Sequence record: OR525702.1
Strand: one strand, 5' to 3'
Length of the DNA: 64,000 nucleotides
From: Escherichia phage vB-Eco-KMB23
Positions 37,943 through 41,555 of this stretch are shown piece by piece. Each line of letters opens with the position of its first letter. Within the stretch, counting starts at the first letter, position 1. Under the pieces are notes generated by a model. The model was not told the origin of the DNA, did not search any database, and saw nothing but the letters and a program-made list of their open reading frames with translations. A program made the translations under genes and the position numbers.

Positions 37943-38159
37943 ATTGTTTTTCCGTTAATACAGTAATATCATAGTAACAATCGGAAGAAGTTTTAACTGT
38001 GGAAATTTTATTATCAAAATACTCACGAGTCATTTTATGAGTATAGTATTTTTTACCATAAATGGTAATAGGCTGTTCTGGTCCTGGAACTTCTAACTCG
38101 CTTGGGTTAGGAAGTGTAAAAAGAACAACGCCAGAAGTATCTTTAAATCGTAAAATCAT
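37896..38159 (-). CDS. hypothetical protein (nrdA.2 position, 87 aa)
   Basis: ORF between td and nrdA.1. Confidence 0.5.
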
Positions 38160-39016
38160 ATTGCCATTTTCCCTTTAATTGCTGGATGCGATTCATAATT
38201 TTCAAGGATAAAATCTTTCGGTTTCATGTATTCAGTTAACCAGTAAAGCTGTGTTTCGGTGTCACAATTTCCAAACTCTATAGGCCAATCAATTTTAAGT
38301 TCACACAGTTCTTTAGGCTCACGACGTAAAATTTCTTTACATTGCGCAGTATGATTCATATAGATGTGAGTATTACCACCAGAAAATATCAAATCTCCTG
38401 GGATAAGATTACACATCTTAGCCACAATATGCGTCAAGGCAGCGTACGAGGCAATGTTGAATGGCAAGCCCAAGAAAACATCTACACTTCTTTGGTACCA
38501 TTGTAAATCAAGATAACCATTACGCACATTAAACTGATAGAACATATGACAGGGCGGTAATGCCATTTGATTGATTTCAGCTGGATTCCATGCTGAAACG
38601 ATTTGACGTCGATCAGTTGGTAATTTTTTAATACGATCAATAGTTTCAACTAATTGATCCACACCACCGAAATCACGCCATTGTTTACCATATATAGGAC
38701 CAAGTTCACCACTATGATATCCTAGGTCTTTAGCTTGGTTTTCATAATTGTCATCCCAGATAGTTTTACCTTGAATAAGACTACCGTGAGTAAGAAGACG
38801 TAAATCATTAACATTGGTAGAACCGGAAATAAACCATAAAAGCTCAGCAATGCATGCATTCCAGGCGAGCTTCTTAGTTGTTACTGCAGGAAAACCTTTA
38901 GTTAAATCCCAGCGTAATTTAGTACCGAACAGAGCAATTGTTCCTATGCCTGTTCGGTCATCGGTTTCATAGCCATTTTCAAAAATGTCTTTAATTAAAT
39001 CTTGGTATTGTTTCAT
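38156..39016 (-). CDS. td: thymidylate synthase (286 aa), uninterrupted
   Basis: 286 aa continuous ORF; TS active-site region ALPPCH; no intron. Confidence 0.96.
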
Positions 39017-39061
39017 TTAGTACCTTATATAAATTATAATACATTTTATGAAGCTGAATAA

Positions 39062-39409
39062 TCAATACGGTTTAGCATCAAATTTTCTTTCAATTTCAGG
39101 CGTGAAATATAATTCTTTACCGCGTTTGGAAAAGCGACCAATAATATGATAATTATTCTCATCAAACGTGATATTACCAATATCCATAGCTTTCAACCAA
39201 ATATCGATATTTCTATCCAGCTTTATGTCAAAATTCCAATACGGAGAACTATTACCGAAAATACTGCAAGCGGATTCAGTAAAACAACTACTATAAATCT
39301 TATCTTTAGGAACTACTAATTGATAGACACCTTTAATAAACTGAGGACCCTGCCACTTTGGCTGTTTCGCGTCTTTTTCTAATAGAATAGGGTAATAATT
39401 AAAATTCAT
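39062..39409 (-). CDS. hypothetical protein (115 aa) at the frd/td junction
   Basis: ATG start 19 nt after the frd stop; ends 45 nt before the td ATG; no recognisable motif. Confidence 0.5.
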   Translation of the reverse strand: MNFNYYPILLEKDAKQPKWQGPQFIKGVYQLVVPKDKIYSSCFTESACSIFGNSSPYWNFDIKLDRNIDIWLKAMDIGNITFDENNYHIIGRFSKRGKELYFTPEIERKFDAKPY

Positions 39410-39428
39410 ATTTTCCGCCAGTGTTATT

Positions 39429-40258
<830 letters not shown>

Positions 40259-40269
40259 ATTATCTCCTA

Positions 40270-40602
40270 TTAAAAAGGATCAGGAACATATCCGCTAGCT
40301 TTAATCATTTTAATTAACGTTAACATTCCTTTGTTAACTGCTCGTGAGATTTCATCAAAAACTTCATCACTAAAAAGTTCTAACACACCCTTCTGAACTT
40401 TTAATTTACAGCCAACAATTTCGTCATCGCCTATAGTAAATTCATTACCACCAATTCCTCCGAAAAACTTAATTACACCAGTTAACTGTCTTCCACGAGA
40501 ATATGGGTCGTGTGATAAAGTAATATGAGTCACCCCGGGTACAGTTTTAAATTGGCAGCGAATATTTACTTGGGAAATTCCAGTTACATGAATATCAGAC
40601 AT
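40270..40602 (-). CDS. hypothetical protein (110 aa)
   Basis: ATG with GAGGAAAA RBS. Confidence 0.5.
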   Translation of the reverse strand: MSDIHVTGISQVNIRCQFKTVPGVTHITLSHDPYSRGRQLTGVIKFFGGIGGNEFTIGDDEIVGCKLKVQKGVLELFSDEVFDEISRAVNKGMLTLIKMIKASGYVPDPF

Positions 40603-40612
40603 AATATTTTCC

Positions 40613-40855
40613 TCAAACAGACTTTTTCACAATTTTCCAATCAGCTTTAAACTGTTCAACGTCAGAATGGTAAATCCAGAATCCTGCGCTTTCTCCATCC
40701 TCATAAAGAGGGCATCCATCACATTCATCTTCCCATCCCATATCACGCAAAAGACGTTCAGCTTTTTCAACAAGTTCAGAATCTTTACCAATAATATTAA
40801 AATACCATTTACCTCTAACTTCTGAATCTTTGATACTCTGACGTTGTAATCTCAT
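40613..40855 (-). CDS. hypothetical protein (80 aa from ATG)
   Basis: ORF track begins at TTG 40912; ATG at 40855 is preceded by AAGGAGA and an early promoter. Confidence 0.45.
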   Translation of the reverse strand: MRLQRQSIKDSEVRGKWYFNIIGKDSELVEKAERLLRDMGWEDECDGCPLYEDGESAGFWIYHSDVEQFKADWKIVKKSV

Positions 40856-40912
40856 TTTATTCTCCTTAGTTGATAAGGCTATAGTATCACTACCATAGCC
40901 TGTTGTAAACAA

Positions 40913-41173
40913 TTATTTTTGAATTTTATCGAGCCACTTACCAAGCTTAATCATTTCTTTAGTAGCCTTTTCCATACTTCTGAACTTAACCAATAGAGGA
41001 TAGGTATCGACACCCATAACTAAACTGGTTACAAGACTGTGTTCACCCACAAGCCATAACGAATACGTTTGAATATCGAGCCCGTAATTTCTGTCTTTGT
41101 GGACCCGTACACCCATCACTTCAAATTTCTCACTAGCTTTTTCTACCGCATTCAGGAAATCATCTTTAGTCAT
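40913..41173 (-). CDS. hypothetical protein (86 aa from ATG)
   Basis: ORF track begins at TTG 41206; first ATG at 41173 lies 1 nt from the upstream ORF stop. Confidence 0.4.
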   Translation of the reverse strand: MTKDDFLNAVEKASEKFEVMGVRVHKDRNYGLDIQTYSLWLVGEHSLVTSLVMGVDTYPLLVKFRSMEKATKEMIKLGKWLDKIQK

Positions 41174-41174
41174 A

Positions 41175-41555
41175 TTAGGCCTTAAAAGTTTTTCGCAAAA
41201 GTTCAATGATTTCGTCTACATTGTTTTCATCTACAATGCAGTGAATTTTTGTTACGCCAGAAACCTTGTCTTTGACTTCATCTTCTTCAGAAGTCGGTTC
41301 TTTATACTCACGAAAACAATGAAATTCGTCTTCGCAAATTTCTAAAAGTCTATCTTTGAGGTAAAAATGCTTTCCATTTGCGCATTCAATGTGTTTTACT
41401 GCTTTATATCCGTTAGCGACGGAAACTTCTTTAACTTCAAACCATCCGCCATTATCTCGAATGGCTTTAACTATTGATGAATTAGAACGTGGGCTATAAT
41501 TAATAAATGTATCAATAAGTCTTGGAACAAGTTCATACTTTTTACCGATATACAT
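41175..41555 (-). CDS. hypothetical protein (126 aa)
   Basis: ATG with GAGGAAAA RBS; several Cys/His residues. Confidence 0.5.
   Translation of the reverse strand: MYIGKKYELVPRLIDTFINYSPRSNSSIVKAIRDNGGWFEVKEVSVANGYKAVKHIECANGKHFYLKDRLLEICEDEFHCFREYKEPTSEEDEVKDKVSGVTKIHCIVDENNVDEIIELLRKTFKA

Follow-up and report, generated by a model that had tools for sequence, protein, structure and literature searches.

Which gene, if any, occupies the interval between frd and td in this Tequatrovirus genome, given that nothing lies between these two genes in phage T4? In the window, the 64,000-nt stretch of Escherichia phage vB-Eco-KMB23 analysed here, the ORF listing places a 115-aa, ATG-initiated ORF at 39062..39409 (minus strand, 115 codons plus stop) between frd and td, all three co-oriented on the minus strand in the order frd, ORF, td. 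The upstream neighbour frd (dihydrofolate reductase; 39429..40013, minus strand) was assigned by its 85% amino acid identity to T4 Frd and by the annotated neighbours in homologous records. It is listed as an ORF of 39429..40040, of which the longer start at 40040 is probably not the real one; the true start is probably at 40013, from where the N-terminus reads MIELVF and is T4-like. This probable start (ATG 40013-40011) overlaps the stop of an upstream 81-aa ORF in another ATGA junction (40011-40015, minus strand). The downstream neighbour td (thymidylate synthase; 38156..39016, minus strand) is intronless, an uninterrupted ORF of 286 aa. The frd stop (39429-39431) is followed after 19 nt by the ATG of the intervening ORF, and the stop of the latter is followed after 45 nt by the td ATG. 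The resulting frd-to-td separation of ~412 nt agrees with the 413 bp given in an earlier, sequence-only reading of this DNA, whose description of a co-oriented, ATG-initiated 115-aa ORF in that gap is confirmed by the ORF listing. A Shine-Dalgarno-like GGCGGA (39414..39419, minus strand), the same in T2, T6, and Lutter, lies 4-9 nt 5' of the ATG; it is weak and its role as ribosome-binding site is putative. The overlap of frd and td in T4, stated in that reading, is also correct: with the td end at 145112 and the frd start at 145109 in NC_000866, the two genes share a 4-nt ATGA overlap and no sequence intervenes.

The ORF is not new but a known conserved hypothetical gene. It is named td.1 in the T6 record AY262134.2 (ABI48938.1) and RB32ORF229c in T2, RB14, and RB32. 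T2, T6, and RB14 encode exactly the same Td.1 protein (100% identity), and the exact sequence is present on 341 contigs in the protein collection, always as 'hypothetical protein'. Homologs were detected by tblastn in 580 phage records, of which 265 reach at least 99% identity; this latter set includes T2, RB14, and many Tequatroviruses of Escherichia, Shigella, Yersinia, and Citrobacter. Td.1 furthermore gives a full-length match to PHROG 1928 (E=8.4e-36), with residues 4-111 aligned to profile positions 2-125 of 126. Its same-strand position, with frd on one side and td on the other, holds in the window and in 10/10 related loci inspected. A literature search returned no mention of the gene as td.1, RB32ORF229c/ORF229c, or phrog_1928, or by its protein accessions. 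It is not discussed in the mobE paper from which the T6 record stems, not mentioned in reviews of T4-related genomes and mobile elements, and not covered by an accessory-gene screen paper. Two functional labels attached to it in individual records were rejected. The label 'putative glucose-1-phosphate adenylyltransferase' (BW-1, SF2-1) is an annotation error, as the protein has no Pfam or NCBIfam match and is, with 115 aa, far too short; the stray label 'putative dihydrofolate reductase' is supported by no profile.

The substitution pattern of td.1 is that of a protein-coding gene. Among the window, T2, and T6, 3-4% of its nucleotides differ and every one of these differences is synonymous, with dS of 0.18-0.29 and dN of 0.000 (dN = 0.000 and dS = 0.285 for the window versus T2). 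Comparison with metagenomic relatives of 63-66% protein identity yielded omega values of 0.05-0.13. By this measure td.1 is under strong purifying selection. An AlphaFold (AF2) model of Td.1, built from 14 homologs, has a mean pLDDT of 83.8 and a pTM of 0.77. The ORFs that overlap the td.1 frame on the opposite strand have no such support. Synonymous-only substitutions, low omega, and the confident structure prediction together argue that td.1 is a genuine, constrained, co-oriented operon gene, far beyond a chance ORF.

Searches with the T4 junction sequence and with the Td.1 protein revealed three alleles of the frd-td interval in Tequatrovirus. The td.1-type allele is present in ~362 records at at least 90% identity, including T2, T6, RB3, RB14, RB33, and AR1. 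The JK08-type allele (~130 records) has a 68-aa ORF (phrog_9550) coupled to frd via ATGA; in Shigella phage JK08 (locus L008, 3588-3794) this ORF begins in the frd ATGA overlap and ends right at the td start. It thus occupies the same slot as td.1, but its sequence is unrelated to Td.1 (10% identity in alignment) and it belongs to a different PHROG. The T4-type allele with its direct overlap is limited to ~20-30 records, mostly T4 isolates and HY03, and by these counts is a rare allele in Tequatrovirus. RB69 (Mosigvirus) has a direct frd/td overlap too. What had been taken for an 'extra', unusual gene is therefore the majority state in Tequatrovirus and was already annotated. The finding is corrective: the reference genome T4 carries a minority frd/td allele, and 'absent from T4' does not equal 'new'. 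The td gene of T4 is split by the I-TevI intron, which is also carried by td of T6, Lutter, and JK08. An association of this intron with td.1 was rejected because the two occur independently across phages: both are present in T6 and Lutter, td.1 alone in T2 and the window, and the intron alone in T4 and JK08.

The sequence-only reading had further proposed td.1 as the best candidate in the window for a gene absent from T4. Its absence stands, as shown by the T4 junction and alignment and by the lack of a td.1 counterpart in the T4 nrdB-32 region (10 kb checked), whereas its uniqueness does not. Three more ORFs of the window, all on the minus strand between gene 32 and frd, are likewise without an equivalent in the nrdB-32 region of T4, so td.1 is not the sole T4-absent ORF here. 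These are an 81-aa ORF at 40013-40258 (phrog_3183, equivalent to RB32ORF231c), a 110-aa ORF at 40270-40602 (Pfam DUF7247, phrog_3566), and a 97-aa ORF at 40913-41206 (phrog_4423); the stretches of T2 and JK08 that were examined lack the 110-aa and 97-aa ORFs as well. As one of many conserved T-even ORFs, td.1 is distinguished by its persistent coupled slot in the thymidylate-synthesis operon and by its constraint.

In the alignment of the window with T4, the two alleles differ by a ~413-bp indel that is bounded by an imperfect 15-nt direct repeat. The left copy, TAAATGAAATAACAC (39421..39435, minus strand), holds the frd stop and is also found in T2, T6, and Lutter. The right copy, TAAATGAAACAATAC (39005..39019, minus strand), holds the functional td start (39014-39016); before this codon stands TAAA, the same bases that end frd. 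The two copies agree at 13/15 positions and share 9 consecutive identical bases. T4 and RB69 have in common the uninterrupted junction GTATAAATGAAACAATACCAA. The simplest reading is that a cassette entered an ancestral overlapping frd-stop/td-start junction and duplicated ~15 nt; T4 would then either have retained the ancestral junction or have lost the cassette via recombination between the repeats. A mini-ORF, ATG-AAA-TAA (39424-39432, minus strand), overlaps the frd stop, ends 14 nt before the td.1 ATG, and is kept in T2, T6, and Lutter. Judged by its sequence, this mini-ORF is a decayed duplicate, a relic of the td start, and it might couple td.1 to frd by termination-reinitiation. Read in this way, the duplicated junction would be a small example of cassette entry into overlapping stop and start codons in T-even genomes. 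Because td.1 in other genera is tightly coupled on both sides and is without such flanking repeats, td.1 of Tequatrovirus looks like a lateral re-acquisition.

Sequence identities along the locus point to exchange at its borders. Nucleotide identity between the window and T2 is 95.7% in td.1, 85.1% in frd, and 84.2% in td exon 1, and the better conservation of td.1 than of its flanks is consistent with movement or recombination at the borders. The td exon-1 region of the window is ~97% identical to Lutter and ~84-85% identical to T2, T4, T6, and JK08; for frd, the identity to all five of these phages is ~85%. On these identities, alleles around the well-conserved td.1 have been exchanged in a mosaic fashion. 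The 45-nt td.1-td spacer (39017..39061, minus strand) is part of the cassette and almost invariant in the window, T2, T6, and Lutter. Pattern matches at the spacer, all on the minus strand, are a td Shine-Dalgarno AAGG (39023-39026), a MotA-box-like GCTTCA-N12-TAATTT (39031-39054), and a sigma-70-like pair TTGATT-N18-TATTAT (39036-39065). The Lutter record annotates a promoter in this spacer, and we regard promoter activity of the spacer as putative. The broader pattern GCTTYA-N11-13-TANNNT occurs 16 times in the window (both strands) versus 6.9 times expected from shuffles, with most copies on the minus strand, which bears the early/middle genes; this excess fits the presence of genuine middle promoters here. 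An Rfam scan of 38000-41000 gave just a sub-threshold chance match.

The td.1 family extends beyond Tequatrovirus. Homologs with 26-47% identity reside in the same frd-td slot in at least six other Tevenvirinae genera, among them Kanagawavirus (PEi26), Jiaodavirus (ValerieMcCarty04), Roskildevirus (Cronus), Gelderlandvirus (STML-198), and Kagamiyamavirus (EcS1), and also in two metagenomic phages. These homologs lie on the same strand as both neighbours, and their start and stop codons mostly overlap them. Several of the slots in other genera hold a second ORF, a tandem td.1 paralog (subfamily B) that adjoins the subfamily-A copy. The longer subfamily-B proteins (113-144 aa), which also match PHROG 1928, have an extra insert of ~20 residues after the conserved Trp, 'W-x-L...PTI-x-EY..NP'; they were located in loci L002 (3317-3673), L005 (3309-3656), L006 (3314-3685), L004 (2559-2993), and L012 (4332-4673), and the Cronus paralog was independently found as a structural match in BFVD. 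No td.1 paralog is present in the window itself, as judged by a search of all six-frame ORFs with the family HMM. When 1.84 billion representative proteins were searched exhaustively with the family profile, no more than 43 clusters came back, essentially all of the Td.1 size class. The family is hence a small one, and its members, as far as the matches show, occur only in T4-like phages that infect Enterobacterales. Repeats account for the matches of the long proteins P0037, P0051, and P0052 in this search, which are not relatives. A single apparent domain fusion, P0014 (195 aa), was disregarded because the genes on its contig look rearranged or fragmented. In this protein (L014, 3001-3588; OR941409.1), the C-terminal ~37 residues of a Klebsiella-phage-type Td.1 follow an N-terminal portion unrelated to it, which probably reflects a rearranged or misassembled genome, in which td and nrdA are fragmented.

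Four residues, W19, G91, K95, and G97, are invariant in 50 family sequences, and L9, Q16, G27, Y29, F93, and F102 are conserved in at least 90% of them; all ten are present in the window protein. Neither the protein alone nor a profile of 50 sequences gave a match in Pfam, NCBIfam, PADLOC, or PDB sequences; for Pfam, no family was hit at E<=10. The AF2 model consists of strands at residues 6-12, 27-34, 62-64, 80-96, and 99-104 and a helix at residues 68-76. The succession of these elements fits the b1-b2-b3-helix-b4-b5 arrangement of an OB fold, a comparison of order alone, and the model has no significant structural similarity to solved OB folds. Td.1, a protein of ~13 kDa, is predicted to form a small beta-barrel with OB-like strand order. 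Family members are mostly mildly basic (pI 8-9.3), and this property, together with the conserved W19, Y29, R92, F93, and K95, provides the only cues, indirect ones, for a putative binding of ssDNA, RNA, or oligosaccharide on the b2-b3 / L12 / L45 face. Nothing in the sequence or the model suggests catalysis, as nuclease motifs, conserved His or Cys, and a nuclease fold are all lacking.

We propose, with a probability of roughly 0.6 for the explanation as a whole, that td.1 is an operon accessory gene for a small, non-enzymatic binding protein that is cassette-borne in Tequatrovirus. The ~413-bp cassette, inserted into the ancestral ATGA overlap with duplication of ~15 nt, would bring along ribosome-binding sites for both td.1 and td as well as the promoter-like sequence before td. 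The gene would be transcribed and translated along with frd and td in the early/middle nucleotide-metabolism operon, and its product would, without performing catalysis, bind either single-stranded nucleic acid or a protein that takes part in thymidylate/dNTP synthesis, which presumes a functional link of Td.1 to Frd and Td. The suggestion of a binding module derives from the deep conservation of the coupled frd-td position and from the OB-like model. Since T4, RB69, and the JK08-type phages do without td.1, the gene is dispensable for basic growth. A more specific proposal, which we hold to be rather doubtful, is that the whole Td.1 family (subfamilies A and B) represents an unrecognised, phage-specific small beta-barrel fold that serves either as a subunit of the thymidylate cycle or as a neutraliser of a host defence that targets nucleotides. 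As a subunit it could, for example, bridge Frd and Td or tether both to gp32-coated ssDNA in the dNTP-synthetase complex. If true, either option would explain the coupled frd-td retention across enterobacterial T4-like genera and the near-absolute purifying selection. Its persistent coupled position and strong constraint make the gene a reasonable and cheap bench target, for which T2 and T6 (with td.1) and T4 (without it) offer natural backgrounds.

The main competing explanation is that Td.1 acts in host takeover or counter-defence, unrelated to nucleotide metabolism, and is found in this early operon simply because the slot is permissive. We consider this possible, at about half the likelihood of the accessory binding protein proposed above. 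The slot is indeed polymorphic among close relatives, with td.1 in ~362 records, the 68-aa phrog_9550 ORF in ~130, and neither in T4 and RB69, and variable small ORFs also crowd the adjacent interval between gene 32 and frd. A small, motif-free protein that laboratory phages can dispense with would also suit such a role. However, the extreme purifying selection on td.1 does not resemble the diversification of an arms race, and even homologs of only 26% identity in other genera keep the position between frd and td, with translational coupling. Td.1 also has no PADLOC match, though PADLOC models describe defence and not anti-defence proteins.

Less probable by far is that td.1 is selfish DNA, a free-standing or degenerate homing endonuclease gene at the frd/td junction, a kind of occupant that the sequence-only reading had considered for this slot. 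Compatible with this idea are the variable presence of td.1 at an intergenic site that conserved genes flank, the short direct repeats around the cassette, and the higher conservation of td.1 than of its flanks, and the records of WilhelmHis and ValerieMcCarty04 say 'putative homing endonuclease'. The protein itself speaks against it. The same reading had judged by eye that Td.1 is neither GIY-YIG nor HNH, and this judgement was borne out: the absence of any Pfam match at E<=10 sets Td.1 apart from GIY-YIG, HNH, LAGLIDADG, and PD-(D/E)xK proteins, and 0/50 family members match a nuclease family at E<=1. Neither His nor Cys is among the conserved positions, the invariant ones being the Trp, Lys, and two Gly named above, 115 aa are too few for a catalytic plus a DNA-binding domain, and no nuclease is found among the structural matches of Td.1, the model of which has no nuclease-like fold. 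In other genera, moreover, td.1 belongs stably to the operon, is translationally coupled, and has tandem paralogs. An endonuclease in this slot hence finds no support. That td.1 is a chance or decaying frame without a product, and the region mere spacer, would accord with the weak Shine-Dalgarno sequence and with T4 managing without the region. This reading is effectively refuted by a dN of 0 against a dS of 0.18-0.29, and both the homologs in 580 phage records across many genera and the confident structure prediction contradict it as well.

Among known systems, the closest counterpart of the window gene is Td.1 of T6, or RB32ORF229c, an identical 115-aa protein in the same position between frd and td. 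The alleles that flank it differ, as frd and td of T2 and T6 are only ~85% identical to those of the window, and td carries an intron in T6 and none in the window. Within PHROG 1928, the window protein represents the shorter subfamily A, which is without the ~20-residue insert of subfamily B. Small OB-fold subunits (RPA14/RPA32 core, Stn1-Ten1, S1/cold-shock domains) are counted with the nearest known systems as well. With the free-standing homing-endonuclease cassettes of T-even phages, such as segG and mobE, td.1 shares that it is optional, flanked by repeats, and better conserved than its surroundings. It differs from them in that it is without a nuclease motif or fold, has about half their size, and is stably syntenic and coupled to its neighbours elsewhere.
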